DNA of 40,942 nt from an uncultured Candidatus Saccharibacteria bacterium (GTDB lineage: Bacteria > Patescibacteriota > Minisyncoccia > UBA6257 > JACRHW01), in contig CAYLXU010000001.1 in assembly GCA_964388055.1 (NCBI GenBank), positions 17,120-58,061 on the forward strand, read 5' to 3'. A program made the position numbers and the translations under genes. Every line of letters starts with the position of its first letter. Position 1 is the stretch's first letter. The notes beneath the pieces were generated by a model. The model had not been told where the DNA came from. It saw only the letters and a list, made by a program, of their open reading frames with translations, and ran no database searches. Of this stretch, positions 20,102 through 40,467 are shown in pieces.

Positions 20102-22040
<1,939 letters not shown>

Positions 22041-22062
22041 CGATTACATGTAAAACAATGTG

Positions 22063-22092
22063 AAACACGCCATCTGGATGGCGTGTTTTTTG
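22063..22092 (+). terminator. Intrinsic terminator after fcl, copy 1
   Basis: AACACGCCAT-CTGG-ATGGCGTGTT is followed by TTTT. The hairpin lies inside the first 21 codons of the track ORF 22060. Confidence 0.7.
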
Positions 22093-22122
22093 TGGTGTGC
22101 CGAGTTAGGATATAATGTAGTT

Positions 22123-24594
22123 ATGAATGGTAAATTTGGAAAACGAGAAACGGTTTTTGTTCACGAGTCGCCGGAAGAGCTTATCGCGAAAGCAAAAATT
22201 GGTGGTTCTTTAGATCTCTCTTTATTGAGAGACGATGAAAAGAAAGAGGTATTACGATGGTATCGAAAACACGCGGATGATGGGGGGGTGTTGGGATATG
22301 AAGAGGCTACCGACTTTTTGGAGGAGTTTGTGAGGCACGATATGGTGCGTGATGCAGAGCTTGTGGGCTACATTAAGTCGGGAAACGTAGATGAGCATCG
22401 TCTTGGTGTATATTTGGGAGAGGCGGTAGAGCCGGGGAGATATGTGCAATCTTTTTATAAGTGTTGGTGGGCGTTTGGCACGGAAAGACGGGAAGAGTTC
22501 ATTTATAAATTTACAAAACAACATCCAGAACACGCAGAAATGGTGGTTCCGTTTGTAGACTTAAGTCGGGTATACATTGAAGAGAGAAAAGATGGTTCTG
22601 TCTCTCGGAAATCGATTCTAGAGGCGCGTTTTAAACGTATCGGCGATGCGAAGCGTCTCATAGAGGCGTTTTTGGCATTTTGTGATATTGATGAAAACTT
22701 GAGTTCGCGCATGTCATTTGGGATGCGTTTTCACTCCCGTCTTATTGAGCATTATTACGATACAAACCGATCAGTACTATATCCATATCTTGGAGAGTTA
22801 TATGACAAGGGGTTTATTGATGATGGAAAAATTGAATCCCTCCTTGGTGCATATCCGTATTCCTCAGGAAATGTTGATTATACACAGGAGGAAGAAAAAG
22901 AGATGAAAGTGCTTGAGGGAAAAATAAAAAAACTTGGAAACCCTTCGGACCTCGGTAAGTATGGTCACCCATCGGAGTTTTTTCCTAGAAAGGACGCTCT
23001 CCGCCTTGAAGAATTGAGAGATCAGGGAAAGTTGCGCGCAACGGAATACTTACTTACAAATTTTATTGCACATCAAAAAAAATTTAATTTCGATGTGCAG
23101 AAATTTTTAGGTGAATGTATTGAGTGGCGTGTACCTATTTTTGCGTTTGTGGATCAACTCGGTTTGAGTAAAAGGGAGGTGGGCATGCTTATTGCCCGGG
23201 CGAGAGTAGAAAATGGTGAGTTGCCCTTTTCTTTGGCAAACCTGGAGGATCTGCGGACACTTTTGGAGTTTAACGCGAAACACAAAAATGAGGAGGGTGT
23301 GGATCTTAAGAAGATGGTGCTAGATCTTCTAAAAGAAGATTTTAAGACTCAAGGAGTAAATTTATTTGCCAATCGGGGCATTGTGTTGAGAATCGATAGG
23401 GTACTTTCCTTATTTGGTAAAGAGGAGGGAGAAAGATTGTTGGCGGCTATTACGAGCGATGCCTCGGAATTGTGGTTATTTAATCCAAGGTATGTGTTGG
23501 AACATAACCTGATGACGTTTGAGGAGCTTATTGATAAAACGTCTTCAAATGAATATGAGTATGTGAGACACCTTGGAAAGTTGATGTATCACGCAAGGCT
23601 TCTTGATGTGGAACATGGTGTGGGCATGCATCTTTCTAATGTTGTGCAAAGAGCGAAAAGGATTATAGATACAAGTCCGGCGTTGTTTTTTGATGAAGAT
23701 ACTTCTCATGTAATTAATCAGATTTTTAACAGGGAGGAACGCGCTCTTTTTGTGGCGAATCATTTAAAACCGCCTGTGGATTCTTCTTTTTTGGGGAAAC
23801 TTCTTGTTTCTCAGGACTGGTCCCCATTTCGAAATGTGTGTCACGATCTTCTTGTTTCAGAACCGATATTGTTTGCCGAGACGTTTCGTTATCATGAAAA
23901 AGGGATCTATAGTGTCCTGAGTCGGAAGGAGGTGCGAGAGCTTGTTCTCACGAATGCGGCGCACATGGATTTTGAACATCTTGCATGGAGCGATCAATTT
24001 AAACGAGAGCTTGTTTCCCACGCTGCATACCAAAAGAGGTTTTTTGAGTGTGTGGTTGAGAGGGGTAGCGCACAGGTTCTTGTAGAATTTATAGGTCGAA
24101 TGGAGTTTCCAGAAGTAGAGAATTGGGAACAAACCAAAAAACAAATTAAAGAAAACGAGGATCGTATACGAACAGAGCAAGAGAGGCTTGAAAGGGTAAG
24201 CCCGGTGTCCGATGGAGAAATGAGAGCGGAGATTAAAAAGAGAATTATTGATCTGATAGAGAAGACAAAGGAATTGAAGAGGAAAAAAAGTCTCGGTGGT
24301 GATATTGTTGAAACAAGAAGGCTTGTTGGGGAATTCAAGCGTACGGCAACGGAGGTGATGAGAGGTGTTGCGGAGAAAGAAAAATTTTTTATATTCAAGG
24401 ATGGTGTTTTGGATGTGCTTGGGGAGATGGGGCGGGAAATAGCTCGTGGAGAGATTAGAGAGTATATAGAAATTCACCCAGAAGTGTTAATGAGATCAAG
24501 GTTTCACCCAAGACCTAGGCTTGTGTTTCGTGAGGTGTTAGGTGACGAGATGTTTTCAGAGCTTTTCATTGCCCACAAAGTCTACGACGAATAG
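22123..24594 (+). pseudogene. 3'-truncated copy of the giant orphan gene, created by the duplication joint
   Basis: It is identical to 32636-35079 up to ...DEMFSELF. It then reads 8 junction-derived codons (IAHKVYDE) in a non-native frame of holA sequence and stops at 24594. Confidence 0.7.
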
Positions 24595-25147
24595 TCTTAT
24601 AAAAGACTGGTTAGATAAGACAGGTCTTAGCGCTGATGCGCGTACTGTGCTGGCGCTGGGAGAATATTATGGAAATGATTTTGGAAAGCTTGAGTTTGCA
24701 ATGGAACGACTTTTGTTGTGGAAGCGCGCTAATTCATCCTTACATGTAACAGCGCAGGATTTGGAATTTTTCATTCCTGAAACTGAGGAGAATATTTTTA
24801 CTTTTGTGGAGGCACTTATTAAAAAGGACATTGAAGAAATTTACCGCATTATTCGAGCAACTACGTACGCAAAAAGAAATGTCTGGGATATTTTAAGGAT
24901 CTTTGATTTCGAGTTAAAACAACTTGTGCTCGTGATGAGTGGTGACAAGAAGGGGATGGGTGGTCTTTCTGCCTGGGTGCGTGGCAAGTTAGAACGTATT
25001 ACTAAATTGACTTCGGAGAGGGAGATTATAGCGTGGTACAACACAATAGCCTCGCTGGATGCGAGGCTAAAGAGAAGTGAAATAGGGGAAGATGAGGCGT
25101 TCGAAGAGATAATATCAACCCCGCTTCTGTTCGCCACTATTTCTTAG
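24557..25147 (+). pseudogene. 5'-truncated holA fragment (C-terminal ~195 codons)
   Basis: It is identical to 14044-14634. The native N-terminal ~120 codons are missing. The track ORF 24542..25147 begins at a fortuitous GTG in giant-gene sequence. Confidence 0.7.
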
Positions 25148-25370
25148 ATGAGGCAGTTTTTGCGGCTCGTGACTTAAGACGAGCAGCTTTGTTGCGATGA
25201 ATTACGCCAGTTTTTACAGCCTTATCAATTGCTTTGTAGGCAAGAGGGAGTTCTTTTACAGAAGACATCTTTTTAAGCGCCGATTTAATGGCTGTCTTCT
25301 TTTGAATGTTGCGAGCTCTTCTTCTAAGGCTCTGGCGATATGCTTTTTGTGCTGATTTTGTATTCGGCAT
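25137..25370 (-). CDS. rpsT: 30S ribosomal protein bS20, copy 2
   Basis: Identical to 14624-14857. Confidence 0.9.
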   Translation of the reverse strand: MPNTKSAQKAYRQSLRRRARNIQKKTAIKSALKKMSSVKELPLAYKAIDKAVKTGVIHRNKAARLKSRAAKTASSKK

Positions 25371-25553
25371 AGTAAACAAAATTTAAAAATCGAAACTACA
25401 ATTTAAAACCAAAAAAAGTTTTTACTTGTTAATCTTAATAGTAAATACATTCGATCTTGTGTTAAGATATAACGTATTTTTCCGAAAAAGTAAAGGGGGT
25501 GGGTGGAGGTGATAGTCTGACACAAGAATACATAAGAATGTTATACTATATGT

Positions 25554-26243
25554 ATGTCACGCCGACTTAAATTACATCTTGACCCAAAAAAACGGTATCT
25601 TCAGGTGGCGTTAAATAGCACTCTCAAGGAGGCGCAGGATATTATTCGTCAATTGCCTGTGAGCGATCGTATTATCATTGAGGCGGGAACGCCACTTATT
25701 AAACAATATGGGGGAGAGGCAATACGGCAAGTTTATTCTTGGTGCAGAGAACATTTTTCCGGGTTTAACCCTTATGTTGTGGCAGACCTTAAAACAATGG
25801 ATCGAGGGGCAACAGAGGTAGAAATCGCTGCGAAGAGTGGTGCAAGCGCTGCAATTGCATTAGGTGTCGCTCCAATTGAGACGCTTAATTCATTTATAGA
25901 CGCCTGTGAGGTGCGAGGTCTTGATGCAATGATTGATATGATGAACGTGGAGTTTCCTCTTTCTGTTCTCCGTGGACTCAAAAGAGTTCCCCCTGTCGTA
26001 ATTTTACATCGGGGCGTTGATGAAGAATCTTTCAACAGAGAAAAACAGATACCTCTTCACGAAATCCGTCGTATTAAGGGGAACTATGATATCATGATTT
26101 CCATTGCGGGAGGGGATACATTACGAGAAGCGCAGCGGGCAATTTTTAACGATGCTGATATTGTAGTTATCTGGAAATCGGTGTTTAGTAGCACAAAAGA
26201 TACTGCCCAACTGGTTTCCGACTTTTTAAAAGTAACAAAATAA
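25554..26243 (+). CDS. 3-hexulose-6-phosphate synthase-like protein, copy 2
   Basis: Identical to 15041-15730. The same TGtTATACT element is at 25539-25547. Confidence 0.65.
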   Translation: MSRRLKLHLDPKKRYLQVALNSTLKEAQDIIRQLPVSDRIIIEAGTPLIKQYGGEAIRQVYSWCREHFSGFNPYVVADLKTMDRGATEVEIAAKSGASAAIALGVAPIETLNSFIDACEVRGLDAMIDMMNVEFPLSVLRGLKRVPPVVILHRGVDEESFNREKQIPLHEIRRIKGNYDIMISIAGGDTLREAQRAIFNDADIVVIWKSVFSSTKDTAQLVSDFLKVTK

Positions 26244-26263
26244 AATATATCTCCCGAAGAGGT

Positions 26264-26521
26264 TTACTTAAAATCGAACTCACCTTTTTCTGGTTTTTCT
26301 CCATCAACTTTGCTAAGAAGTATTCCTATCTCTTTCCCAATAGAAGAATATGAATCCATAAGCACCCCTTCGGATTCTATTGATAGTATTTTCATTCGAA
26401 CACCACTGCTTATAATCTCTTGTCCTTTTTGAAGGGTCCCTTTTTTAAGAACCCCTTCTACAAAATATCCTTCATCAAATTCCTTCAGGATATCTATGAT
26501 TTCAACACGTGTGGTTTCCAT
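26264..26521 (-). CDS. Small hypothetical protein, copy 2
   Basis: Identical to 15751-16008. Confidence 0.35.
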   Translation of the reverse strand: METTRVEIIDILKEFDEGYFVEGVLKKGTLQKGQEIISSGVRMKILSIESEGVLMDSYSSIGKEIGILLSKVDGEKPEKGEFDFK

Positions 26522-26529
26522 GGAGAGAT

Positions 26530-27228
26530 CTAGGGGGTGATGATGATGCCGATGTCGTTGGGTAGCTGAAGGGTGTAGGTTCCTATTTTAAACTTCGTGA
26601 GGGATTCGCGAAGTTTTTCTTTTAGTTCCTGTGGGGTAAGTGGAATAAGTAGTGGATCTTCTGTTCTAAAAAAAGACCCTTTTACTGTGGCAGGAAAGAG
26701 TATTTCATCATTTTCATTCCAGAGAACTGGTCGGTTGTCGTGCGTGTTTTGGAGGAGTGTTTGTATTTTTTTCCAATCCGAATCAAGGAATTCGTTTGTT
26801 TTCCAGTCGGCATGTGTAAAAAAGACGCTCGTAACATTTTGGTCCATGATGGGTGGTCTGCAGAATATTACTGGTTTTGTGTTTGCAAACCTTTTCTCTA
26901 CTTCATCTAGAAAGTGATCTTTGCAGTAAGAAGTTTCAATAATTTGGTCACTGGGATTGATAAAGCTGAGTGTAAAAAACGGCCTTCTCCACGGAAGAGA
27001 TTCACCGTATCCGCATATTTTTGGTTTGTTTTTCCACCAACGGAAAAAAACAAAGAGAAGAATAACAGAAAAGAAGGAAATTTCGGAAAATGACTTTAGA
27101 TCCAAAAATTGCTCTAAGCTCAAGGCGTTATAGACGGGTTCCATCATAAGGAACCAAACTATGCTAAAAAAGAAAAATAGTATGACGAATACGGCGATCT
27201 TGAACAACAAGACGATCAATCCTAACAT
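26530..27228 (-). CDS. Hypothetical membrane protein, copy 2
   Basis: Identical to 16017-16715. Confidence 0.5.
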   Translation of the reverse strand: MLGLIVLLFKIAVFVILFFFFSIVWFLMMEPVYNALSLEQFLDLKSFSEISFFSVILLFVFFRWWKNKPKICGYGESLPWRRPFFTLSFINPSDQIIETSYCKDHFLDEVEKRFANTKPVIFCRPPIMDQNVTSVFFTHADWKTNEFLDSDWKKIQTLLQNTHDNRPVLWNENDEILFPATVKGSFFRTEDPLLIPLTPQELKEKLRESLTKFKIGTYTLQLPNDIGIIITP

Positions 27229-27231
27229 GCG

Positions 27232-28002
27232 TTATTTTTTGGTTTTTAGGTAATCGGAAAGTGATTGGATGCCTTGGAGGAATTCGATAGGGAGGGCAAA
27301 AATAACTGTTTTTGAGGGATCTGGATTTATCTTCTCGATTGTTTCAAGTGTACGGAGTGAAAGCCCGCCGGGAACGGCGCTTAAACGTTCTGCTGCCTGG
27401 GAAAGTTTCTCTGCTGCTTCATATTCCCCTTGCGATTGAATAACGATTGCGCGTCGCTCGCGTTCTGATTCTGCCTGTTTTGCCATAATGCGTTTCATGT
27501 CTGCGGGGAGTTCAATGTCTTGGATTCTGATGTCAGTAATGTTGATACCCCACTCGGTAGTGATCATGTCAACGTCTTTTTTCATCTCCCCGGCAATCTT
27601 TTCTCGTTCTGAAAGAAGTGTATCAAGTTCGACGCCACCAATCACATCTCTAAGGGCCGCCTGTGCATACTGCACTATTGCGTTATAGTAGCTCCTAATT
27701 TTTAGTACTGCCTTGTCAGCATCAAGGACGTGGAAGTATACTACCGCGTTAATTCCTACGGGTACATTGTCTTTTGTAATGACTTCTTGTTGAGGAATTT
27801 CTGTGCTATTTACACGAACGTCTACAACGATCATTTCTTGAATACCAAAGAGGACGAAGATCCATGTGAGGCCCGGTCCTCGTACGCCAGCATACCTACC
27901 CAGCGTAAGCACAACTCCGCGTTCGTATTCTTTCACAACACGTAATCCTCGTAGGAGGATGTACACAACAAAAAGAACAATAAAAGTTATAAAAACTTGC
28001 AT
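27232..28002 (-). CDS. SPFH/band-7 family protein, copy 2
   Basis: Identical to 16719-17489. Confidence 0.85.
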   Translation of the reverse strand: MQVFITFIVLFVVYILLRGLRVVKEYERGVVLTLGRYAGVRGPGLTWIFVLFGIQEMIVVDVRVNSTEIPQQEVITKDNVPVGINAVVYFHVLDADKAVLKIRSYYNAIVQYAQAALRDVIGGVELDTLLSEREKIAGEMKKDVDMITTEWGINITDIRIQDIELPADMKRIMAKQAESERERRAIVIQSQGEYEAAEKLSQAAERLSAVPGGLSLRTLETIEKINPDPSKTVIFALPIEFLQGIQSLSDYLKTKK

Positions 28003-28234
28003 ATATGTTTAGTTAATTTGCTTATTATTAGTATAGCACACCTGGTTGTCACAATCTCGATAGATGGCGTGTGATCGACTTTTTATTGCCGGGCACATTT
28101 TACATTTAATGTTGTCCAAATTAGAGTATAGATAAGCAGAAATTCCTAACATCTAATTCTCAATTTCTAGCAAAACTTCAAATATAAAATTTTCAAATTG
28201 AAAATTTTTAAAATTAGAAATTGAAAGTTGTAGT

Positions 28235-28807
28235 ATGATTTATTCTCTTTCAGGAAAAATTCGGTCTGCTCAAGCCAACGCAATAGTTATTGAGACAGAA
28301 GGGGGGGTCGGGTATCTTGTGTTTGCCACCCCCGAAACAATATCTCGGGCCGTGATACACGAAAATGCGCGACTCTATACGTTTCTTCAAGTGCGTGAGG
28401 ACGCACTTGAACTGTATGGTTTTATCTCAGAAGAAGAACTCGCTTTTTTTAGACTTCTTACTACGGTATCGGGTGTGGGCCCCAAGGCGGCGATGGCAAT
28501 TTTGGGTGTTGCGGACATTCACACACTCCGTTCGGCAATCGCATCCGGAAAGGTAGAGATTTTGAGTCGTGCAGGAGGGATAGGAAAGAAAACAAGTGAA
28601 AGAATCATTGTTGAATTAAAAGAGAAGGTGGGAAAGAGCGATGAAAAGATTAAAGCATTTGAACTTGATCTTGATATACTCGAGGCGTTAAAATCTTTGG
28701 GGTATTCTGGGCAGGAGGCGCAGCGAGCAATTAAAGAGCTTTCTCCTGATATAATTAGTTTTTCAGAACGCCTTAAGGCTGCTCTAAAAATGCTCGGGAA
28801 GAAATGA
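28235..28807 (+). CDS. ruvA: RuvA, copy 2
   Basis: Identical to 17722-18294. Confidence 0.9.
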   Translation: MIYSLSGKIRSAQANAIVIETEGGVGYLVFATPETISRAVIHENARLYTFLQVREDALELYGFISEEELAFFRLLTTVSGVGPKAAMAILGVADIHTLRSAIASGKVEILSRAGGIGKKTSERIIVELKEKVGKSDEKIKAFELDLDILEALKSLGYSGQEAQRAIKELSPDIISFSERLKAALKMLGKK

Positions 28808-30150
28808 GTATCTTGTATAGATACATGATAAACAAACTACGATCATACTATCATTTAATGTGGGCATATCTCAGTGCTTTTTTTTCTGGTTTTCCATCGA
28901 GAAGGCTTACGGTTATTGGTATCACTGGTACGAAGGGGAAGACGACAACAACTGAACTCATGGTCCATGTACTAAGAAGCGCGGGGCACAAGGTTGTTTC
29001 TTCATCTGGGCTCCAATTTCGTATAGATGAGAAAGTAGTTCCAAATGATTTTAAGATGACGATGCCTGGACGTGGTTTTCTCCAGCGTCTCCTGGCGCGA
29101 GGGGTAAAAGAGAGGTGTGATGTTGCGATTCTTGAGGTGACATCGGAGGGGCTGGCCCAGTCTCGGCACTCCTATATTAATTTTGATGTTGCGGTGTTTT
29201 TAGGTATTCATGAGGAGCATCTAGAGAGGCATGGGGGGTTTGAGGGGTATAGAAGGGCAAAGGAGATGCTATTCCAAGCGCTTCAAGAGTCAGAAAAAAA
29301 GAAGAAAATTGCAGTTATAAATACTGATGATGCACACGCTCCAGAGTTTGTAAAATATCAGGTAGACGAAGTGTGGGGATTTGGGTTTAAAGGAAATGGA
29401 CTTAAAAAGGGCATGAAAATGCTCAAGGCAGATGGTGTGCAGTCCACTGCCGCTGGTTTGCAGTTTTATATAAACGGCAATCGCATCCTTTCAAGAATTC
29501 TTGGAGAATTTAATGTATATAATGTGCTTGCTGTAGTTGCAGTTGCGAAGGCTCTTCACATAGATGACGGAGTAATTCAAAGCGCTATCGAAACATTTTC
29601 TGGAATTCCAGGGAGAATGGAAGTAATTAATGGGAAAGGAATTCACGTGATTGTCGATTACGCGCATACGCCGGACTCTCTTGAATGGGTATATAAAGAG
29701 GCACGAAGAATTTTTAACCCTAGCTCGATGGTGTGTGTTCTTGGTGCGGCAGGGGGAGGAAGAGACACGTGGAAACGTTCGGTGTTTGGCGAACTTGCGG
29801 CAATGTACTGTGATGAAATAATTCTTGCAAATGAAGACCCGTACGACGAAAATCCAGAAAGCATTTTACAAGATATTAAAAAAGGAATTGATCAGTTTTC
29901 AAATAGAAAAGTAAAGTTGTCGGCATCCTCATTTAATTCATTCCAAGAGACTTCAAAGACACATACGAATGCGCGGGTGCACATTATTTTGGAAAGGCGT
30001 GAGGCCATTAAAAAAGCGATATCTCTTGCGAAACCAGGCGATGTTGTGGTAATTACGGGAAAGGGGGGTGAACGATGGATGGTGCTTGCGGGGGGAAAGA
30101 AGATTCCGTGGGACGACTCCGGTATTGTAAAAGAAGTAGTATATGCCTAG
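28804..30150 (+). CDS. murE: Mur ligase family protein, MurE-like, copy 2
   Basis: Identical to 18291-19637. Confidence 0.65.
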   Translation: MSILYRYMINKLRSYYHLMWAYLSAFFSGFPSRRLTVIGITGTKGKTTTTELMVHVLRSAGHKVVSSSGLQFRIDEKVVPNDFKMTMPGRGFLQRLLARGVKERCDVAILEVTSEGLAQSRHSYINFDVAVFLGIHEEHLERHGGFEGYRRAKEMLFQALQESEKKKKIAVINTDDAHAPEFVKYQVDEVWGFGFKGNGLKKGMKMLKADGVQSTAAGLQFYINGNRILSRILGEFNVYNVLAVVAVAKALHIDDGVIQSAIETFSGIPGRMEVINGKGIHVIVDYAHTPDSLEWVYKEARRIFNPSSMVCVLGAAGGGRDTWKRSVFGELAAMYCDEIILANEDPYDENPESILQDIKKGIDQFSNRKVKLSASSFNSFQETSKTHTNARVHIILERREAIKKAISLAKPGDVVVITGKGGERWMVLAGGKKIPWDDSGIVKEVVYA

Positions 30151-30607
30151 TAGTGAAAAAGGATTTCTCAAGAAAGATCTCTATAAAAAGGTGTACAATG
30201 TTGCGCCTATTTTTTGCGTAGATATAGTTGCGGTGTGCGGTAACGAGTTTCTCTTAGGAAAAAGGGAGAACGAGCCTGAGAAAGGAAAATGGTTTCTCCC
30301 TGGTGGGCGTATTTATAAGATGGAACCTTTTGAAAAAGCAGTAGCGCGAAAAGTAAAAGAGGAGTTGGGTATTCGTGTTGCAAAAAAGGATTTCAAATTT
30401 CTAACGCTTGGAACCGTGATGTCAAAAAAAGCTCCATTTGGTGATGGTCCGTTCCATGCAGCAATTGGAGTATATAAGGTAAATATAAAAAAGAAGGATC
30501 TAGTAAGGGCAGATTCTCAACACTCAGAACTAAGATGGTTTACCACGATAGATAAAAAGTGGCACCCTTATGTGAAAGAATCTCTTCACGCAGCAGGATT
30601 CAAATAA
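30143..30607 (+). CDS. NUDIX hydrolase, copy 2
   Basis: Identical to 19630-20094. Confidence 0.7.
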
Positions 30608-30614
30608 GATACGT

Positions 30615-32553
<1,939 letters not shown>

Positions 32554-32575
32554 CGATTACATGTAAAACAATGTG

Positions 32576-32605
32576 AAACACGCCATCTGGATGGCGTGTT
32601 TTTTG
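32576..32605 (+). terminator. Intrinsic terminator after fcl, copy 2
   Basis: Identical to 22063-22092. Confidence 0.7.
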
Positions 32606-32623
32606 TGGTGTGCCGAGTTAGGA

Positions 32624-32629
32624 TATAAT
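32624..32629 (+). promoter_or_regulatory. TATAAT placed 6 nt before the giant-gene ATG (leaderless geometry)
   Basis: TATAAT is at 32624-32629, followed by GTAGTT and ATG at 32636. The same element is at 22111-22116 in unit 1. The -35 is weak. Confidence 0.4.
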
Positions 32630-32635
32630 GTAGTT

Positions 32636-35600
32636 ATGAATGGTAAATTTGGAAAACGAGAAACGGTTTTTGTTCACGAGTCGCCGGAAGAGCTTATCGC
32701 GAAAGCAAAAATTGGTGGTTCTTTAGATCTCTCTTTATTGAGAGACGATGAAAAGAAAGAGGTATTACGATGGTATCGAAAACACGCGGATGATGGGGGG
32801 GTGTTGGGATATGAAGAGGCTACCGACTTTTTGGAGGAGTTTGTGAGGCACGATATGGTGCGTGATGCAGAGCTTGTGGGCTACATTAAGTCGGGAAACG
32901 TAGATGAGCATCGTCTTGGTGTATATTTGGGAGAGGCGGTAGAGCCGGGGAGATATGTGCAATCTTTTTATAAGTGTTGGTGGGCGTTTGGCACGGAAAG
33001 ACGGGAAGAGTTCATTTATAAATTTACAAAACAACATCCAGAACACGCAGAAATGGTGGTTCCGTTTGTAGACTTAAGTCGGGTATACATTGAAGAGAGA
33101 AAAGATGGTTCTGTCTCTCGGAAATCGATTCTAGAGGCGCGTTTTAAACGTATCGGCGATGCGAAGCGTCTCATAGAGGCGTTTTTGGCATTTTGTGATA
33201 TTGATGAAAACTTGAGTTCGCGCATGTCATTTGGGATGCGTTTTCACTCCCGTCTTATTGAGCATTATTACGATACAAACCGATCAGTACTATATCCATA
33301 TCTTGGAGAGTTATATGACAAGGGGTTTATTGATGATGGAAAAATTGAATCCCTCCTTGGTGCATATCCGTATTCCTCAGGAAATGTTGATTATACACAG
33401 GAGGAAGAAAAAGAGATGAAAGTGCTTGAGGGAAAAATAAAAAAACTTGGAAACCCTTCGGACCTCGGTAAGTATGGTCACCCATCGGAGTTTTTTCCTA
33501 GAAAGGACGCTCTCCGCCTTGAAGAATTGAGAGATCAGGGAAAGTTGCGCGCAACGGAATACTTACTTACAAATTTTATTGCACATCAAAAAAAATTTAA
33601 TTTCGATGTGCAGAAATTTTTAGGTGAATGTATTGAGTGGCGTGTACCTATTTTTGCGTTTGTGGATCAACTCGGTTTGAGTAAAAGGGAGGTGGGCATG
33701 CTTATTGCCCGGGCGAGAGTAGAAAATGGTGAGTTGCCCTTTTCTTTGGCAAACCTGGAGGATCTGCGGACACTTTTGGAGTTTAACGCGAAACACAAAA
33801 ATGAGGAGGGTGTGGATCTTAAGAAGATGGTGCTAGATCTTCTAAAAGAAGATTTTAAGACTCAAGGAGTAAATTTATTTGCCAATCGGGGCATTGTGTT
33901 GAGAATCGATAGGGTACTTTCCTTATTTGGTAAAGAGGAGGGAGAAAGATTGTTGGCGGCTATTACGAGCGATGCCTCGGAATTGTGGTTATTTAATCCA
34001 AGGTATGTGTTGGAACATAACCTGATGACGTTTGAGGAGCTTATTGATAAAACGTCTTCAAATGAATATGAGTATGTGAGACACCTTGGAAAGTTGATGT
34101 ATCACGCAAGGCTTCTTGATGTGGAACATGGTGTGGGCATGCATCTTTCTAATGTTGTGCAAAGAGCGAAAAGGATTATAGATACAAGTCCGGCGTTGTT
34201 TTTTGATGAAGATACTTCTCATGTAATTAATCAGATTTTTAACAGGGAGGAACGCGCTCTTTTTGTGGCGAATCATTTAAAACCGCCTGTGGATTCTTCT
34301 TTTTTGGGGAAACTTCTTGTTTCTCAGGACTGGTCCCCATTTCGAAATGTGTGTCACGATCTTCTTGTTTCAGAACCGATATTGTTTGCCGAGACGTTTC
34401 GTTATCATGAAAAAGGGATCTATAGTGTCCTGAGTCGGAAGGAGGTGCGAGAGCTTGTTCTCACGAATGCGGCGCACATGGATTTTGAACATCTTGCATG
34501 GAGCGATCAATTTAAACGAGAGCTTGTTTCCCACGCTGCATACCAAAAGAGGTTTTTTGAGTGTGTGGTTGAGAGGGGTAGCGCACAGGTTCTTGTAGAA
34601 TTTATAGGTCGAATGGAGTTTCCAGAAGTAGAGAATTGGGAACAAACCAAAAAACAAATTAAAGAAAACGAGGATCGTATACGAACAGAGCAAGAGAGGC
34701 TTGAAAGGGTAAGCCCGGTGTCCGATGGAGAAATGAGAGCGGAGATTAAAAAGAGAATTATTGATCTGATAGAGAAGACAAAGGAATTGAAGAGGAAAAA
34801 AAGTCTCGGTGGTGATATTGTTGAAACAAGAAGGCTTGTTGGGGAATTCAAGCGTACGGCAACGGAGGTGATGAGAGGTGTTGCGGAGAAAGAAAAATTT
34901 TTTATATTCAAGGATGGTGTTTTGGATGTGCTTGGGGAGATGGGGCGGGAAATAGCTCGTGGAGAGATTAGAGAGTATATAGAAATTCACCCAGAAGTGT
35001 TAATGAGATCAAGGTTTCACCCAAGACCTAGGCTTGTGTTTCGTGAGGTGTTAGGTGACGAGATGTTTTCAGAGCTTTTTCGAGACCACATTAAAACGTT
35101 AGTATTTTGGAACGATCGATACGGAAGGGGGCTCTTTGAGATGCGAGATCTTCCTCTAGATCTTCAAAAAGACGCCGCCACCTTAAACCCCTTCTTTAAG
35201 ATTCATGAAAAGGATAGTTTGCAGGAAGACTACTACGCGCATTGTCTTAGATGGTTTTCTTCATACAGTTTTTACCCGATTTTTGAAAAGCGTCTCATGC
35301 AAATTGCAAGGGAGCAGCAAAATGTTTTTGGTCAACAAACATCGCTTAAGTCCTTTACTCCAAACAAAGAATTTCATTCTCTTGGAAACTCTTTACTTCT
35401 TCTTGAGTCTTCCCCATTCGCGCGTCAGTACAGAGATGACATACTTGCACTCTCACCAAGGGAACAGGAGGTTACAATTTCTCTCTTTTCCTTCTTATCT
35501 TTTTATCATCTCGACGAACATGTGGTGTCACACCTTGAGGGAAAGAGCTTTGATTCTGCTCAGCAGGAGGCCCATGATGTGATAAGCCGCTTCTTACAAA

Positions 35601-36925
35601 AAATGTTTGAAATAAAGGAGGATCTCGGACCGGTCGCATCAATTCCTATTCAAGTTGTCCGCGCTCTCTCTATCTATTACAACAAGAGTTGTAGCGAGCA
35701 TCTGGCTATGAGTAGTGCGTTCAGAAAAGCAATAGTACCTATTCTTAAAGGAAATTACGAAAGTTGGCGTGCGTGGGGTACAGATGGTGAAGTGCAAGAA
35801 GAGGGCAAGGATGCAGCACTCATGCAGATGAAGAAGGATAAACTTATTCCAGAGTCGCTGAATAGAGAACAATACGAATCTTGGATCAGGGAGGACGGGA
35901 TGGATTTTTCTGAGGCTTTTTCGTACCAGATTACCGATGTGCGTTCTGGAATAAGAGACGTGATCTCCCGTGCGATGGTAGATCAACACATTGAGAAGGG
36001 TGAGCTCGAAACTGATTTTTTGGCACTCGAGAACAGATACGAACAACTCATCGCACCACTTAAGGAGATGGTAGCACGCCAGAAAGTGTTGCGGGATATT
36101 TCAAAGGGCCGCGATCTTACAGATGAGGAGAGGGGAGACTATGAGGGGCTTAAGCAGAGGATTCAAGAATATAAGGCGGGACACGAAGAAGAGTTTTCAA
36201 GTATTCAGGCACAGCAATATCTTGCAAGGCTAAGGAGTCTTACACTTGAAGAACTTGAATTACAAAATATTGTTCTTGGAAAAAAGAAAATTTCCTTTAC
36301 TGATGTGTTTAAGGTGCTACAAGGGCATTTTAAGGAAAAACAAGATTTTCTCTCGGACATACAAAGAATAAGAGACGTGCTGCAGCGAGCATATCAGAGT
36401 ATATTTGGGGGAGAAAAAGTGTCCCGATCACGTTTAATGGTCTCGGATGGTGTAGATCTGGAGACACATGTGCTTATTGGAGAAAAACCGGTCGCATCCT
36501 GCCAACATTATGATGGGTCGGATCTTAACTTTGGCCTTCTTTCTTATATATCCGACCCAGGAGTAAAGATCATTCAAGTGCGTGATGAACAAGGTGCACT
36601 TGTGGCGCGGGCGGTGCTACGCATGGTGGAAGATAATGCCGGACAACCTCAGCTTTTTATGGAACGTGTGTATTCAGTAAATACGCATCCGAAGGTAAAG
36701 GAGGCAATGGTGCGTTTTGCATTACGCAAGGCAGAGATATTGGGGGTAACGTGTTATACCCACGAAGGGGTATTTGCAGACATGTTTGAAATGGGTTCTG
36801 AACTCACAGTATTGCACAATCGTGGAAGCAGGAGCCCTTATGTGTACACCGATGCTGGGGGTGGTAAGATGCCAGATGGTGTGTTTGAGGTAAAAGCGTT
36901 TCAGATTCTCGTGGCAAAGGAATAA
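32636..36925 (+). CDS. Giant orphan protein (1429 aa), function unknown
   Basis: A single uninterrupted ORF. The start is moved to MNGKFGKRE because the first 21 track codons are the fcl terminator hairpin. The protein is mostly helical or charged, with a coiled-coil-like stretch (EQTKKQIKENEDRIRTEQERLER...). The C-terminal ~170 aa look like a globular alpha/beta module (CQHYDGSDLNFGLLSYISDPGVKIIQVRDEQGALVARAVLRMVED...). I found no catalytic motif I can name. Confidence 0.75.
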   Translation: MNGKFGKRETVFVHESPEELIAKAKIGGSLDLSLLRDDEKKEVLRWYRKHADDGGVLGYEEATDFLEEFVRHDMVRDAELVGYIKSGNVDEHRLGVYLGEAVEPGRYVQSFYKCWWAFGTERREEFIYKFTKQHPEHAEMVVPFVDLSRVYIEERKDGSVSRKSILEARFKRIGDAKRLIEAFLAFCDIDENLSSRMSFGMRFHSRLIEHYYDTNRSVLYPYLGELYDKGFIDDGKIESLLGAYPYSSGNVDYTQEEEKEMKVLEGKIKKLGNPSDLGKYGHPSEFFPRKDALRLEELRDQGKLRATEYLLTNFIAHQKKFNFDVQKFLGECIEWRVPIFAFVDQLGLSKREVGMLIARARVENGELPFSLANLEDLRTLLEFNAKHKNEEGVDLKKMVLDLLKEDFKTQGVNLFANRGIVLRIDRVLSLFGKEEGERLLAAITSDASELWLFNPRYVLEHNLMTFEELIDKTSSNEYEYVRHLGKLMYHARLLDVEHGVGMHLSNVVQRAKRIIDTSPALFFDEDTSHVINQIFNREERALFVANHLKPPVDSSFLGKLLVSQDWSPFRNVCHDLLVSEPILFAETFRYHEKGIYSVLSRKEVRELVLTNAAHMDFEHLAWSDQFKRELVSHAAYQKRFFECVVERGSAQVLVEFIGRMEFPEVENWEQTKKQIKENEDRIRTEQERLERVSPVSDGEMRAEIKKRIIDLIEKTKELKRKKSLGGDIVETRRLVGEFKRTATEVMRGVAEKEKFFIFKDGVLDVLGEMGREIARGEIREYIEIHPEVLMRSRFHPRPRLVFREVLGDEMFSELFRDHIKTLVFWNDRYGRGLFEMRDLPLDLQKDAATLNPFFKIHEKDSLQEDYYAHCLRWFSSYSFYPIFEKRLMQIAREQQNVFGQQTSLKSFTPNKEFHSLGNSLLLLESSPFARQYRDDILALSPREQEVTISLFSFLSFYHLDEHVVSHLEGKSFDSAQQEAHDVISRFLQKMFEIKEDLGPVASIPIQVVRALSIYYNKSCSEHLAMSSAFRKAIVPILKGNYESWRAWGTDGEVQEEGKDAALMQMKKDKLIPESLNREQYESWIREDGMDFSEAFSYQITDVRSGIRDVISRAMVDQHIEKGELETDFLALENRYEQLIAPLKEMVARQKVLRDISKGRDLTDEERGDYEGLKQRIQEYKAGHEEEFSSIQAQQYLARLRSLTLEELELQNIVLGKKKISFTDVFKVLQGHFKEKQDFLSDIQRIRDVLQRAYQSIFGGEKVSRSRLMVSDGVDLETHVLIGEKPVASCQHYDGSDLNFGLLSYISDPGVKIIQVRDEQGALVARAVLRMVEDNAGQPQLFMERVYSVNTHPKVKEAMVRFALRKAEILGVTCYTHEGVFADMFEMGSELTVLHNRGSRSPYVYTDAGGGKMPDGVFEVKAFQILVAKE

Positions 36926-36956
36926 AAAAGGACGGCTTATGCCGTCCCGTCTTTTC
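36924..36956. terminator. Bidirectional intrinsic terminator between the giant gene and the Ubl gene
   Basis: AAAAAA-GGACGGC-TTAT-GCCGTCC-CGTCTTTTCG. The stem is at 36930-36947, with an A-run on one side and a T-rich tail on the other. Confidence 0.7.
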
Positions 36957-36969: not shown

Positions 36970-37188
36970 TTAGCCCTTTACTCCAGATTCCTTCAGGAAT
37001 TCCAACTCATCTTCCTGGCCCGTAAGCCGGAACTCGGTTGGGTCGTTCACCTGTTTGCCATCCACGAGGACCGTTTCATGGTCGGGAGTTACGTTGAGCA
37101 TTGCAGAAACCATGTTCTGCACCTCTTCCACTGTCTTGCCACCCACTTCTTCCACGGTGATGCTGTTTGCGCCGCACACTACCGTCAT
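36970..37188 (-). CDS. Ubiquitin-like beta-grasp protein (ThiS/MoaD-like, 72 aa) ending in a C-terminal Gly
   Basis: MTVVCGANSITVEEVGGKTVEEVQNMVSAMLNVTPDHETVLVDGKQVNDPTEFRLTGQEDELEFLKESGVKG-stop has ThiS-like spacing (G.TV.E, V.VDG..V, L..DE.EF). GGAGGTGA (37200-37193) is correctly spaced for ATG 37188 and not for the track start at 37206. Confidence 0.7.
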   Translation of the reverse strand: MTVVCGANSITVEEVGGKTVEEVQNMVSAMLNVTPDHETVLVDGKQVNDPTEFRLTGQEDELEFLKESGVKG

Positions 37189-37260
37189 ATTCTCACCTCC
37201 TTCCATGCAGATTTTAGGTATAAGAACTTTGTATGTTATAGCATTCTGCCCAACGAACTG

Positions 37261-37968
37261 TCAATAGTTTGGATTGAGGTAGTCGTAGACTTTTCTTTTT
37301 ACAGGCCGCACGTTTCCTGTTTTAAGGTCAAAGTACTGTTCCGTAAATGGGATTGCGTCACCTCTCGACCAGAGGGTAAGCGCATTAAGCATGAGTGCCG
37401 CGATGGTAAGATTTACCGTAAGAATTTGTGGCGACCCTGCTTCTATAAGCTCATCACATCCACGGTGTGCTGGGTTGCGATCTTTTGGAAATCCAATCTC
37501 TCGATGATATGCGGTAAGGGGAGGGGTTACATCCTTTCCGTCTCGGCGTTCATATACTTGGATATTTCCATCATACTCATCGTTACCTCCTGAGATGAGG
37601 AGCCCATTTTTAAGCATTCCAACACAATCTGAAAGAACTTTCCGTGTTGCATGATTATCAACGCAAGCGAGCACAACATCTCCCTCACGAATGTAGACGT
37701 AGGAGTTGTCTTCATCGACGTATTTTGCCTTTGAGGAAATTTCCAACTCACCAAAGATGAGTTTAAGTCGTTCCGTGGTGGCAACCGCTTTATTTATACC
37801 AATTTCTCCTACGCGTTGCCGTTCTCGGTTTTTCTCTTCATATTGATCTCCATCAACAAGAACAAGGCGATTTGAGACACGTTTTCGATCTGCATAGGCA
37901 ATCATTCTGCAAAGTGGGTCTATGAGACACGTTCCGATACCACCAAGTCCGATTACAACAGTTCTCAT
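37261..37968 (-). CDS. E1-like adenylyltransferase (ThiF/MoeB/HesA family), minimal 235-aa form
   Basis: MRTVVIGLGGIGTCL is the GxGxxG loop. LVDGDQYEEKNRERQ and VLACVDNHATRKVL match the E1 nucleotide/Mg motifs (D.D.V...N..RQ; D..DN...R). Its ATG at 37968 overlaps the JAB stop as ATGA. The 78 track codons upstream lie inside the JAB gene. Confidence 0.8.
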   Translation of the reverse strand: MRTVVIGLGGIGTCLIDPLCRMIAYADRKRVSNRLVLVDGDQYEEKNRERQRVGEIGINKAVATTERLKLIFGELEISSKAKYVDEDNSYVYIREGDVVLACVDNHATRKVLSDCVGMLKNGLLISGGNDEYDGNIQVYERRDGKDVTPPLTAYHREIGFPKDRNPAHRGCDELIEAGSPQILTVNLTIAALMLNALTLWSRGDAIPFTEQYFDLKTGNVRPVKRKVYDYLNPNY

Positions 37969-38768
37969 GATTTGCGCCTTCCTTTCTTTTTGCGTGCGTG
38001 CTTTGCTTCCTGAAGCCTCGTGCGGAGAGGCGTGAGAAGACCAAGTACATTCCAAGACTTTTCTGGTGTAATCTGTTCGAGCCACTCCTGTGGAGGAGTA
38101 TATGATCTCGGGAGCATGTTTTCCTGATTGTTCAGATAAAACGTATGATTTGGATCTGGTACGCGGATTTTCGAGGGCACCTTTACGATTCCCCGTATCC
38201 ACTCTTCCGGATTTAGAGGGAATCGTGTTCCATTGATCGCTACCTGAACACTCAGTTCAAAATTGCGAGACCTTCCTGTCTTACCAAGTCGACCAAAGGT
38301 TCCATGAATACCATCAATACTTTTTTCATCACACACATCAGTGCTTGAATGAAATGCGCTTCCGGAACCATGTGAGTGAAACGTCCCAATCAGGAGTTCC
38401 TCGGGATTGCGACGCGGTATGTCATACGTCGCACGCCCAGCGCTTACGCGTTGAGGTGGGACAGAAATGCGATACTTATTCGTTGTGGTGTTAATCCAAA
38501 GGAGAACGACTGCTTCTGTTCCGTGTGTGTTGTATACCCATGCAAAGAGGCGAAGTATTTCGAGTAGAATCTTTTTTGGAATAATCGGAAAAAGCGGGGT
38601 AAGAGTAGGAGTCTGTGGTTCAAGAGTACTAATCTCAGGTACGGGGACAGTTGCCTCCCAATATCGCATCTTCTTTCTTACAAAACATCCATTTCTTGCC
38701 AGAATAAAACAGTTACCATTTTCAGTGGGAGGAGTTTCTCCCTGATGTTTGATGAAAATCGGATACAT
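37965..38768 (-). CDS. JAB/JAMM (MPN+) metalloprotease
   Basis: FHSHGSGSAFHSSTD is an exact H-x-H-x7-S-x2-D (H131, H133, S141, D144), with an upstream Glu in HGTEAVVLL. The SD AAGGAG lies 8 nt upstream. The start overlaps the upstream stop as TGATG. Confidence 0.85.
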   Translation of the reverse strand: MYPIFIKHQGETPPTENGNCFILARNGCFVRKKMRYWEATVPVPEISTLEPQTPTLTPLFPIIPKKILLEILRLFAWVYNTHGTEAVVLLWINTTTNKYRISVPPQRVSAGRATYDIPRRNPEELLIGTFHSHGSGSAFHSSTDVCDEKSIDGIHGTFGRLGKTGRSRNFELSVQVAINGTRFPLNPEEWIRGIVKVPSKIRVPDPNHTFYLNNQENMLPRSYTPPQEWLEQITPEKSWNVLGLLTPLRTRLQEAKHARKKKGRRKS

Positions 38769-40054
38769 CAGTGTTCTCCTTTCTTTGAGTAGTAGGGTGT
38801 TTCTACGAGGGCGGATATAAGTGCGTTTAAAAGTTGTGTGGAGATTTCCTTGAGTTCTTGCATCAATTCAATTTTCCCTTCTCCCGAGATCGTATCAAGT
38901 CGCTTCTGTGTGCGTTCTGTAAGATCTGTTGGTACAGTAAAGCGGGCCTCGAGGTTATAGAGAAGTTCCTCTAACGTCTCACGAAATCGTTCTGTCATGA
39001 GGTCTTTTGTTGTCTGAAGTACTGTCTCAAACCGCTCTTTTCGTCTGTTTGCATAGTGTATTCCTCCAGCAAATTTTTTTTCGACGAGCGTTCTTATAGA
39101 ATGTGGGTACTGAATCCACGGAAACGCTACAATTGTTTCCGGATTTTTTTCAGACATCTCTTCCCAGTTTCGAAAAAATCCCGCTTCAGTAAGATGTTCT
39201 TTTTTTAGGTATCCTCTATAATCACTTCCGTGAGATAACAAAAATTCGCTTTGCCAGAAATGGGAGATAAGTCTTTCATGCCAGTCCTTGTCTCGCAGAG
39301 AAAAGTCAGGATAGTTTCCGAGACACACATCACCGCCGCTACAGTTAGGGAGACTAGGTAAGAAGATGGCATCTTCTTCACTCTCCACTGGGGTGGATCG
39401 GAAAAAAGCCATGAGCTGATGAAATCTGTTGTTTATGAAAGAGACAAGAAAATAAATCCAGGGAAATGACAACCTTCGGCGGGCCCCGGATATTTTAATA
39501 GTTCTTCTTTGGGGTGGTTCTTCAATACAGAATAATGTGATATGTTCATATCCAGTTTCAGTTTCCCACACAAACCGGGTTCCGGGGGGCAGCATTCCTG
39601 AGCTGCGAATACCGTTTGTTGTTTTTCCTTGTTCACGATCTTCCTGTTCGAGAAAACGTTTGATTTCCGCAAAACATTCTTCAAGAAGTGGTCGCATGAA
39701 GGCTTCTCCGTCTGCTCCTATTTTTTTGATAAGTTCCATACGAATATTCCGTTCTCCTGTAGTAAGGATTTGCTCTAGATCTGGCCTCGTGCGTTCAAGC
39801 ATTGAGCGAACTAGGTTCCACACATTGTTGTGCATCCATGCATTAAGAGTTGTTTCAAGGGTGTTTCGTACAATCAAAGGGAGCGCTTCTGTGAGCGACC
39901 CCTTAGGGGACATTTCAATCGTCTTCTTTGGAAAAACACCTAGAACGTGTTCTGTTTTTTCCTCAGGGCACCATCCCATTCCTTGCCTATCAACAAGGGC
40001 TTGGTTGAGCAGTTCGTTTGGGAGTAGCACTGTAGAACATTCTTTTTTACGCAT
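38768..40054 (-). CDS. 428-aa orphan, candidate E2/UBC-like conjugating enzyme with helical N- and C-terminal extensions
   Basis: It is the first gene of the cassette, with the SD AGGAGAA 8 nt upstream. Its centre reads as beta-strand-like segments (FVWETETGYEHITLFCIEEPP, RRLSFPWIYFLVSF, QLMAFFRS) followed by LPSLPNCSGGDVCLGNYPD (residues 232-250). That loop resembles the UBC HPN-x-x-x-G-x-[IV]-C-L active-site loop. Confidence 0.4.
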   Translation of the reverse strand: MRKKECSTVLLPNELLNQALVDRQGMGWCPEEKTEHVLGVFPKKTIEMSPKGSLTEALPLIVRNTLETTLNAWMHNNVWNLVRSMLERTRPDLEQILTTGERNIRMELIKKIGADGEAFMRPLLEECFAEIKRFLEQEDREQGKTTNGIRSSGMLPPGTRFVWETETGYEHITLFCIEEPPQRRTIKISGARRRLSFPWIYFLVSFINNRFHQLMAFFRSTPVESEEDAIFLPSLPNCSGGDVCLGNYPDFSLRDKDWHERLISHFWQSEFLLSHGSDYRGYLKKEHLTEAGFFRNWEEMSEKNPETIVAFPWIQYPHSIRTLVEKKFAGGIHYANRRKERFETVLQTTKDLMTERFRETLEELLYNLEARFTVPTDLTERTQKRLDTISGEGKIELMQELKEISTQLLNALISALVETPYYSKKGEH

Positions 40055-40089
40055 GTTTTATTCTCCTCTCTTCGTCCTTGGTCTCTACA

Positions 40090-40103
40090 GCTTCATGTGA
40101 AGC
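40090..40103. promoter_or_regulatory. Palindrome GCTTCA-TG-TGAAGC in the cassette 5' leader (candidate operator or leader hairpin)
   Basis: It has 6-bp arms with a 2-nt spacer and lies between the predicted transcription start (about 40130) and the SD of the first cassette gene. Confidence 0.3.
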
Positions 40104-40136
40104 CGGGCTTTGGTTTTCAAGGCATGGTCTATGCAT

Positions 40137-40165
40137 GTATTATCACGATTTCTCATATTGGTCAA
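40137..40165 (-). promoter_or_regulatory. Cassette promoter TTGACC-17 nt-TAATAC with extended -10 (TGa)
   Basis: The minus strand has TTGACC (40165-40160), a 17-nt spacer ending in TGA, and TAATAC (40142-40137). This gives a 5' UTR of about 75 nt. Confidence 0.5.
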
Positions 40166-40185
40166 TAAATTTTTCTGTTTTTTCT

Positions 40186-40215
40186 TTGACACCAACTGAT
40201 ACCATTTGATACCAT
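40186..40215 (+). promoter_or_regulatory. Divergent promoter of the HTH gene, TTGACA-18 nt-(TGa)TACCAT, 6 nt before the ATG
   Basis: TTGACA is at 40186-40191 and TGATACCAT at 40207-40215. A second direct copy of TGATACCAT is at 40197-40205. AGGAAT then precedes ATG 40222. Confidence 0.45.
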
Positions 40216-40221
40216 AGGAAT

Positions 40222-40467
40222 ATGGGAAAAATTCAGCCTGAAAATGTGTATACTACACAAGAGGCGCAGGATTATTTAAAGATAAGTGTAAGTACCATGA
40301 AACGTTTACTGAAGAATGGTATTATTCGCGCAAACAAAATTGGTGGGCAATACCGTATCATGGGCAGGGAGTTGTTACGTCTTGTTTCGCCAGAGATGGA
40401 AGAAAAAGCCGCAAACTTGTATCAAAGAGTAAAGCGAAAAACAAAAGCCGCCATACAAGATTGGTGA
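40222..40467 (+). CDS. Excisionase-family (MerR-like) helix-turn-helix DNA-binding protein
   Basis: VYTTQEAQDYLKISVSTMKRLLKNGIIRANKIGGQYRIMGRELLRLV matches the excisionase-type HTH pattern (t..EaA.yL.vs..tv.rl...G.i.a.kiG..yRi....l). Confidence 0.75.
   Translation: MGKIQPENVYTTQEAQDYLKISVSTMKRLLKNGIIRANKIGGQYRIMGRELLRLVSPEMEEKAANLYQRVKRKTKAAIQDW

Follow-up and report, generated by a model that had tools for sequence, protein, structure and literature searches.

The closest described counterpart of the locus reported here is the operon type listed as 6d in Table 1 of Iyer, Burroughs & Aravind (2006, PMC1779556), which combines a ubiquitin-like protein (Ubl), a JAB peptidase extended at its N-terminus by an alpha+beta domain, an E1-like and an E2-like protein, the latter without the classical histidine, and a helical protein. 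This type is equated with the PRTRC system, covered by the NCBIfam models TIGR03735-03742, in which the E2 corresponds to Pfam Prok-E2_D and the Ubl to Prok_Ub. Among the operon classes predicted in 2006, conjugation to proteins is established for the 6a/b-like one, which is that of Cap2 in CBASS, the antiphage signaling system based on cyclic oligonucleotides. It has also been shown for type 6c, the Type II Bil systems, and type 6e, the Bub systems (PMC10557695, PMC11601596, PMC11601603), and the BilABCD operons of Type I and Type II ('6C/CEHH') are antiphage Ubl-conjugation operons (PMC10557695; bioRxiv 10.1101/2023.09.04.556158). The Bub operons ('6E'/DUF6527) use Ser/Tyr oxyester intermediates, carry E2-E1 or JAB-E1 fusions and include a DUF6527 serine protease (PMC11601596, PMC11601603). 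Here we analyze a four-gene cassette encoded on the minus strand at positions 36970-40054 of a 40,942-nucleotide stretch (the window) of contig CAYLXU010000001.1, from the assembly GCA_964388055.1 of an uncultured Candidatus Saccharibacteria bacterium. The cassette encodes a 428-aa protein, a JAMM peptidase, a ThiF-type E1 and a Ubl (genes 1 to 4, in that order), and is probably a self-contained Ubl-conjugation operon, of a minimal, chromosomal and highly divergent PRTRC/6d form. It belongs to none of the Bil, Bub or CBASS classes, and it is a variant of an already known kind in probable bacteria of the candidate phyla radiation (CPR) rather than something categorically new.

Kinship of the cassette with the PRTRC system

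The gene set, the operon structure, the conservation of the catalytic residues and of the four-gene unit, and the homology to PRTRC proteins A, B and ThiF were established directly. The first three genes are linked by overlaps (TGATG at 38766-38770 and ATGA at 37965-37968), a spacer of 72 nt separates the E1 gene from the Ubl gene, and a Shine-Dalgarno sequence precedes each of the four starts (GAGAGGAGAA, AAAGGAGAA, AAGGAAGG and GGAGGTGA). These features, together with the open reading frames (ORFs) and protein motifs, had been described in an earlier, sequence-only reading of the window, every sequence statement of which was confirmed on recheck. The arrangement is not due to chance, because ten further distinct loci, at protein identities of 30-55%, show the order E2-like, JAB, E1, Ubl; it is present in the ~98%-identical relative L001, in three GTDB genomes (an unclassified metagenome-assembled genome (MAG), a Candidatus Saccharibacteria MAG and a Candidatus Paceibacter MAG) and on further metagenome contigs. 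The order is kept even where the E2-like protein is only distantly related: one such protein, of 780 aa, has a membrane region at its N-terminus, another is 492 aa long, and a third, of 868 aa, carries repeats at its C-terminus. Gene 1 lies upstream of the JAB and E1 genes, translationally coupled, in all loci. An alignment of 21 sequences was too divergent for pattern design and one of seven sequences worked; a scan of genome contigs with the single protein found nothing. The CPR-type host suggested by the sequence-only reading is consistent with the occurrence of related cassettes in Saccharibacteria and Paceibacter MAGs.

The two middle genes tie the cassette to PRTRC most plainly. Gene 2 scores 33.5 bits against Pfam Prok-JAB (cut-off 25), which places it among the JAMM/MPN+ peptidases, and its best NCBIfam match is PRTRC protein A (TIGR03735; E=9.9e-13, positions 17-184 of 192), with 48.1 bits against a curated cut-off of 101.8. 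The residues E85, H131, H133, S141 and D144 are invariant across five CPR homologues and a bona fide PRTRC protein A, and the peptidase is preceded by a DUF2016-like N-terminal alpha+beta domain and followed by a variable basic C-terminal tail. Gene 3 scores 70.6 bits against Pfam ThiF (cut-off 28.1) and possesses the GxGxxG motif, Arg finger and Mg-binding Asp of that family; its best NCBIfam match is PRTRC ThiF (TIGR03736; E=6.7e-14, positions 13-242 of 245), with 51.8 bits against a cut-off of 144.75. The motifs GLGGIG (GxGxxG), DGDxxExxNxxRQ and VDNHATR are conserved, and Cys171 (RGCDEL, in the crossover loop), the candidate catalytic cysteine, is conserved in eight related E1s and offset by one residue in PRTRC ThiF; nucleotide-binding motifs and a crossover-loop Cys are present in all nine E1s compared, one of them a PRTRC ThiF. 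Sequence relatives of gene 3 in the PDB comprise ThiF-type proteins, SUMO E1 subunit 2, TcdA, MoeB, Uba5 and ThiF, and among the PHROGs it matches just one family of unknown function. The E1 had been called very small, which does not hold for its family, since the PRTRC ThiF model has 245 positions and the Methylomonas example 241 aa.

The last residues of the Ubl before the stop codon are ...SGVKG. Its K71 and G72 do not vary among seven homologues, PRTRC protein C (…KTKG) included, and in one homologue the C-terminus extends by a Val, which would have to be trimmed off. The window Ubl alone matched no family in the Pfam and NCBIfam scans, PRTRC_C included. Across the seven family members, Pfam ThiS is matched by three and Prok_Ub by one (2e-10), presumably the Methylomonas PRTRC protein C. 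A profile of the Ubl family has ubiquitin and FUBI as its top matches in the PDB, where single copies score 14-19 bits; the very low E-values that it returns for polyubiquitin arise because repeats are summed. An hhalign comparison of this profile with a ThiS sequence was uninformative.

The expectation that the cassette is of the Ubl+E1+E2+JAB kind recognized by comparative genomics was therefore borne out, specifically for the PRTRC / Iyer-2006 '6d' type (PRTRC_A 1e-12, PRTRC_ThiF 7e-14). In the PRTRC locus of a Methylomonas plasmid the order is ParB, hypothetical, C (Ubl), 406-aa hypothetical, B, A, hypothetical, ThiF, and the order B-A-ThiF of this canonical locus is identical in the cassette. 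The two also share a homologous E2-like protein (B) that has a conserved Cys and lacks the HPN histidine, a JAB with an N-terminal alpha+beta domain (A), a single-domain ThiF of ~240 aa and a Ubl ending in Lys-Gly. However, the cassette scores far below the equivalog cut-offs and has no ParB-family gene, no PRTRC D or E and no helical protein of ~400 aa; genes of the ParB family and PRTRC D/E were found neither in the window nor in the flanks of L001, L004, L005, L008 and L017. Its Ubl gene stands last, whereas that of PRTRC lies upstream, and its Ubl is ThiS/ubiquitin-like rather than Prok_Ub-matching. At 428 aa, the E2-like protein is longer than the ~256-aa protein of PRTRC, from which it differs by additional N-terminal and coiled-coil regions, and the cassette is chromosomal, syntenically stable and found in CPR bacteria, whereas PRTRC resides on plasmids and integrative and conjugative elements of Proteobacteria, Bacteroidota and others.

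The experimentally studied classes are more remote. The cassette resembles Bil in having four separate genes for Ubl, E2, JAB deubiquitinase and E1 and a Ubl with a terminal Gly, sometimes followed by residues for JAB trimming, but the Bil E1 consists of an inactive and an active adenylation domain and a mobile CYS domain, whereas the cassette E1 is a single domain of 235 aa, the cassette E2 is from another family, and no defence-island context was seen. Kinship with the proven Bil class, raised in the sequence-only reading, did not hold up, as there was no similarity: PADLOC gave no system-level match on the cassette, and what it returned was BilD at E=0.041 and weak 'E1-E2' matches, each to the E1. 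Bub is likewise a bacterial conjugation pathway of E1, E2, Ubl and peptidase with fused or accessory domains; in the cassette, by contrast, the Cys residues are conserved, the genes are separate and nothing matches DUF6527. Like the cassette, Type II CBASS Cap2/Cap3 combines an adenylation domain of E1 type with an E2-like Cys and with a JAB peptidase, in line with the weak PADLOC matches, yet in Cap2, which conjugates a CD-NTase, E2 and E1 are fused, and the cassette has no CD-NTase, effector or fusion.

The E2-like protein and its rapid divergence

Gene 1 had been regarded as an orphan, which proved wrong: an exhaustive HMMER search of 1.84 billion representatives recovered homologues in 578 clusters at E<=1e-3 and in 109 at E<=1e-10, counted as representative clusters at 50% identity. 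The exhaustive search was needed because a word-indexed search with gene 1 had given a single 93% relative, and repeating it with the core profile gained nothing further. The homologues have in common a core of ~170 aa (aa ~150-320), which in the window protein follows an N-terminal beta-hairpin domain (aa ~12-53) and a long helix (54-142) and precedes C-terminal helices (320-418). Cys244 is invariant in alignments of 76 and of 107 homologues and is the sole invariant nucleophile of the core, which has no conserved His/Asp triad. Among the 76 sampled homologues, 25 match Prok-E2_D at E<=0.01 (best 6.4e-18) and 11 match PRTRC_B (TIGR03737; best 5.9e-11), and an HMM of the core retrieves the annotated PRTRC protein B of the Methylomonas plasmid at E=7e-8, Cys on Cys; together these matches establish homology to PRTRC protein B, not membership. 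When the CPR-subfamily profile was compared by hhalign with one PRTRC protein B alone, the Cys residues aligned but the match fell short of significance (E=0.25). The idea that the helical arms of gene 1 represent a fused PRTRC helical protein was unsupported by hhalign against the 406-aa protein (E=0.25).

In hhalign against canonical E2s, the core profile places P-N…C244 on HPN…Cys85 of UBE2D2 and the next helix on its helix 2 (P=0.013), and PN…C with the following helix aligns to four canonical E2s at P=6e-4; the canonical sequences themselves aligned sensibly. P236-N237 sit 7 residues upstream of Cys244 and the His of HPN is absent, so that the candidate catalytic Cys lies in a flap after the beta-meander with an (H)PN motif ahead, as expected of an E2/UBC protein. 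The AlphaFold2 model of the core (predicted local distance difference test score (pLDDT) 92.2, predicted template-modeling score 0.88) comprises a six-strand beta-meander, a Cys loop (the P236-N237...C244 flap) and four helices, and the full-length model (pLDDT 80.6) adds the N-terminal beta-hairpin domain and long helices flanking the core. The order of secondary-structure elements, helix, beta-meander, Cys loop, helices, is that of UBC. Foldseek against BFVD retrieved four uncharacterized Caudovirales proteins with the same fold (template-modeling score ~0.5-0.7, E 7e-8 to 6e-5); among 50,697 phage genomes searched by tblastn with gene 1, none matched.

The wider family includes several other architectures. 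Some variants of 700-780 aa (P0025, P0028, P0036) have an N-terminal hydrophobic region, apparently multi-transmembrane as judged from sequence, and others of 650-880 aa (P0077, P0128, P0139) carry the core N-terminally, followed by long repeat-rich regions, and have a phage-like look. Yet others of ~212 aa (P0042, P0084) consist of the core only; two of these may share one contig, since the longest recorded contig is equally long for both (19,578 bp). A high-GC contig classed as viral (L015/L018; IMG/VR IMGVR_UViG_3300032053_000480, 1-9112) encodes three E2-core paralogues (2-553, 537-1169 and 2346-3335), a long JAB (3647-5335), an E1 (4882-6081), a Ubl (6142-6375) and an ORF at 1183-2115 that appears by eye, from its N-terminal sequence, to be reverse-transcriptase-like. 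This locus is a looser, expanded version of the cassette.

Flanking genes differ between lineages, but within a lineage the position of the cassette is fixed, following rpsF-ssb-rpsR in the Saccharibacteria-type loci L003, L005 and L017 and following RsmE and MJ0711_N in L002 and L008, even though the flanking proteins of these genomes share only 52-93% identity. In every syntenic pair compared the E2-like protein is the most diverged gene. Its amino acid identity is 55% between L005 and L017 (JAB 74%, neighbors 78-99%), 33% between L005 and L003 (neighbors 52-81%) and 44% between L002 and L008 (neighbors 61-66%). The pattern extends to the much closer pair of the window and L001, in which the E2-like gene is 94.6% identical at the nucleotide level against ~98% for its neighbors and 98.8% for the adjoining intergenic DNA upstream of the cassette. 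Between window positions 38768-40054 and L001:10001-11284, 31 codons differ non-synonymously and 26 synonymously, and the changes cluster at aa 17-51 and 166-345, including 247-254 directly after Cys244, while aa 52-165 and 346-428 show zero amino acid changes and the helices are identical. The corresponding synonymous to non-synonymous counts are 10:6 for the JAB, 8:3 for the E1 and 3:1 for the Ubl. The clustering in the E2-like protein suggests a recombination tract or diversifying selection.

Alternative readings of the cassette

Several points weigh against a conjugation operon of the PRTRC kind. In the literature searched we found no biochemical characterization of any PRTRC/6d-type system, so that conjugation by the cassette is an extrapolation from Bil, Bub and CBASS, and no paper on Ubl conjugation in CPR bacteria. 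Neither an E3 nor a target is evident, and the Ubl family also resembles ThiS. The gene 1 protein of the window itself scores only 13.1 bits on Prok-E2_D (PF14460; E=0.078, aa 223-273), below the 25-bit gathering threshold, and has zero NCBIfam matches, PRTRC protein B (TIGR03737) giving none at E<=1. Foldseek of the full-length and core models against the PDB returned no UBC/E2, the best matches being noise (E>=0.045), and an hmmsearch of the core profile against PDB sequences gave zero matches, with other family profiles yielding coiled-coil noise or nothing. On the UBC/RWD-like fold that the sequence-only reading had asked of gene 1, the results are divided: the profile alignments are E2-like, and the structural search with the core found no UBC. 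Because Foldseek was negative, there is standing for a reading in which the Ubl, E1 and JAB act together and gene 1 is not an E2 but a substrate, scaffold or adaptor of new fold, serving an E1-driven, E2-independent tagging of the SAMP/TtuB-like kind; the name 'Prok-E2_D' would in that case say more than is known. A core modeled at pLDDT 92 that matches no UBC structure, structural matches confined to uncharacterized Caudovirales proteins, a meander of six rather than four strands and an E2 profile match limited to 32 columns would all sit comfortably with such a protein. We nevertheless judge it unlikely, since the only invariant nucleophile of the family is a single Cys placed after a PN motif at E2-like spacing, the helix, meander, Cys flap and helices follow the UBC order, and gene 1 is strictly coupled ahead of the JAB and E1 in all loci. 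What speaks for the E2 assignment is accordingly the profiles, the motif, the order of the secondary-structure elements and the setting in the operon; automated structure search lends it no support.

The resemblance of the Ubl to ThiS, which three of the seven homologues match in Pfam, and of the E1 to MoeB, ThiF and Uba4 models and structures invites a different reading of the entire cassette, as a sulfur-carrier pathway in which the ThiS-like protein would be adenylated by the ThiF-type enzyme and its thiocarboxylate would donate sulfur to a metabolite or tRNA, with the JAB trimming the carrier and gene 1 acting as a persulfide relay. JAB-type trimming of a carrier is familiar from CysO/Mec+ and QbsE/QbsD, and the cassette shares with ThiS/ThiF, MoaD/MoeB and CysO/Mec+ a ThiF-fold E1 of similar size and a small beta-grasp protein, and with CysO/Mec+ a JAMM peptidase as well. 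One locus, the Paceibacter cassette in L008, also has a stand-alone rhodanese gene (7821-8117) ~2 kb upstream, probably unrelated because it is missing from the syntenic L002. Yet the Ubl ends in an invariant Lys-Gly, not Gly-Gly, its family profile finds ubiquitin and FUBI rather than ThiS or MoaD at the top of the PDB matches, no rhodanese domain was found in the E1 by Pfam scan, the three enzymes are nearest to PRTRC A, B and ThiF, and the cassette has an extra conserved, Cys-bearing E2-like gene and no sulfur-acceptor enzyme nearby. Neighbors that would have indicated a sulfur role (CysM, ThiG, MoaE and siderophore genes), named in the sequence-only reading, were sought in every locus seen and found in none, and the flanks examined were equally free of ParB and PRTRC-D/E. 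The sulfur role is thereby disfavored, and we hold it to be quite improbable. Most improbable by far is a decaying, functionless remnant of a PRTRC cassette left by a mobile element, which might explain the missing ParB and PRTRC D/E and the PRTRC scores that all lie under the curated cut-offs, but which is at odds with four intact ORFs, conserved catalytic residues, the excess of synonymous over non-synonymous changes relative to L001 in the JAB, E1 and Ubl genes, and the retention of the unit at fixed chromosomal positions despite the divergence of the flanking proteins.

Genomic setting, proposed mechanism and significance

The features of the cassette and its borders are collected in the table. 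The terminator at its 3' end is common to the operon and to a convergent ORF of 1450 aa (32573-36925, plus strand) without a Pfam domain, which is conserved in L001 only (1414 of 1451 aligned aa identical) and absent beside the other cassettes. The upstream region contains a promoter-like site (TTGACC...GATAAT), three direct repeats with 10-bp phasing (TGGTATCA, TGGTATCA and TGGTGTCA) at ~40187-40214 and a palindrome (GCTTCA-CA-TGAAGC) at 40090-40103; from their sequence, the phased repeats and the palindrome may be operator sites. The divergent HTH_17 protein is a possible local regulator of the cassette, and among the loci compared its gene stands beside the cassette in L001 only. We weighed whether this gene and the 1450-aa ORF belong to the system and left both out of its core because they are conserved only in that 98%-identical relative.

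Features of the cassette and its borders (coordinates in the window)
Feature	Coordinates	Strand	Basis
Gene 1, 428-aa E2-like protein (Prok-E2_D / PRTRC-B-related)	38768..40054	-	ORF, homologue profile matches, AlphaFold2 model
Gene 1 catalytic core, aa 150-320 (putative); Cys244 codon 39323-39325	39095..39607	-	Invariant C244, core model, profile matches
Gene 2, 267-aa JAMM/MPN+ metallopeptidase, PRTRC-A-like	37965..38768	-	Prok-JAB and PRTRC_A matches
Gene 3, 235-aa single-domain ThiF/MoeB-type E1 adenylyltransferase	37261..37968 (start = ATG of the ATGA overlap)	-	ThiF and PRTRC_ThiF matches
Gene 4, 72-aa beta-grasp ubiquitin-like protein, end K71-G72-stop	36970..37188	-	Terminus conservation, profile matches
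Bidirectional intrinsic terminator, 8-bp stem with 6 G-C pairs, T tract	36929..36948	.	3' end of operon
Upstream control region (putative)	40055..40221	.	Read from sequence
81-aa HTH_17 (excisionase/MerR-type) DNA-binding protein	40222..40467	+	Pfam HTH_17 1.2e-11; divergent from cassette

The rest of the window is ordinary chromosome, with genes for RuvA/B/C, YebC, PolA, TsaE, a Mur ligase, PilB, Gmd, HSP20 and SOD, and a tRNA search of the window found none. Positions 14044-35079 are taken up by two 100%-identical tandem copies, 14044-24566 and 24557-35079, which follow each other at a period of 10,513 bp and share 10 bp at the junction. The duplication takes in genes for OMP decarboxylase, SPFH, RuvA, a Mur ligase, NUDIX, Gmd and an epimerase and leaves the giant ORF truncated in its first copy (22060-24594). 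In L001, at ~98% identity, the duplicated genes from RuvA to the giant ORF are in single copy. The duplication is either an assembly artefact or very recent.

For a Ubl-conjugation operon, the conserved residues allow a sequence of steps to be proposed, every one of which we infer from the gene set rather than from chemistry. The 72-aa Ubl would be made with a free C-terminal Lys-Gly, or be trimmed to it by the JAMM peptidase. The single-domain E1, presumably a homodimer like MoeB/ThiF, would then use ATP to adenylate Gly72, and a Ubl thioester would form on the crossover-loop Cys171, from which the Ubl would be handed to the invariant Cys244 of the E2-like protein. The variable N-terminal beta-hairpin domain and the coiled-coil arms of this protein could pick the target and pass the Ubl to a lysine, which would make it a putative E2/E3 hybrid, and the JAMM peptidase would remove the mark.

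The rapid evolution of the E2-like protein would fit a target that itself keeps changing, for example a protein from a phage, from a mobile element or from the interaction with a host. Together with the phage-encoded homologues, this fast evolution makes an antiphage role conceivable; the suggestion of such a role in the sequence-only reading drew no support from genomic context. A broader proposal, which we advance tentatively and regard as doubtful on balance, is that ultra-small CPR/Patescibacteria keep, at fixed chromosomal sites, a vertically inherited four-gene conjugation system whose extended E2-like component, as an E2/E3 hybrid, also provides specificity and evolves fast to track a changing target, be it a phage, a mobile element or a protein of the epibiont-host interface. 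If true, this would define a distinct minimal branch of bacterial ubiquitination and offer the first tractable entry to the PRTRC/6d class.

In summary, the cassette is the smallest self-contained version of PRTRC/6d, because it does without ParB or accessory genes, and its four small, separate proteins are suited to reconstitution. Our findings highlight a large family (578 clusters, with transmembrane-anchored and phage-type variants) whose E2-like and Ubl components annotation resources leave unnamed. They also indicate that Ubl-conjugation machinery reaches beyond plasmids and defence islands and is stably kept in reduced CPR genomes, where, if conjugation is indeed what the cassette performs, the fast-evolving E2-like protein would point to its biological target.

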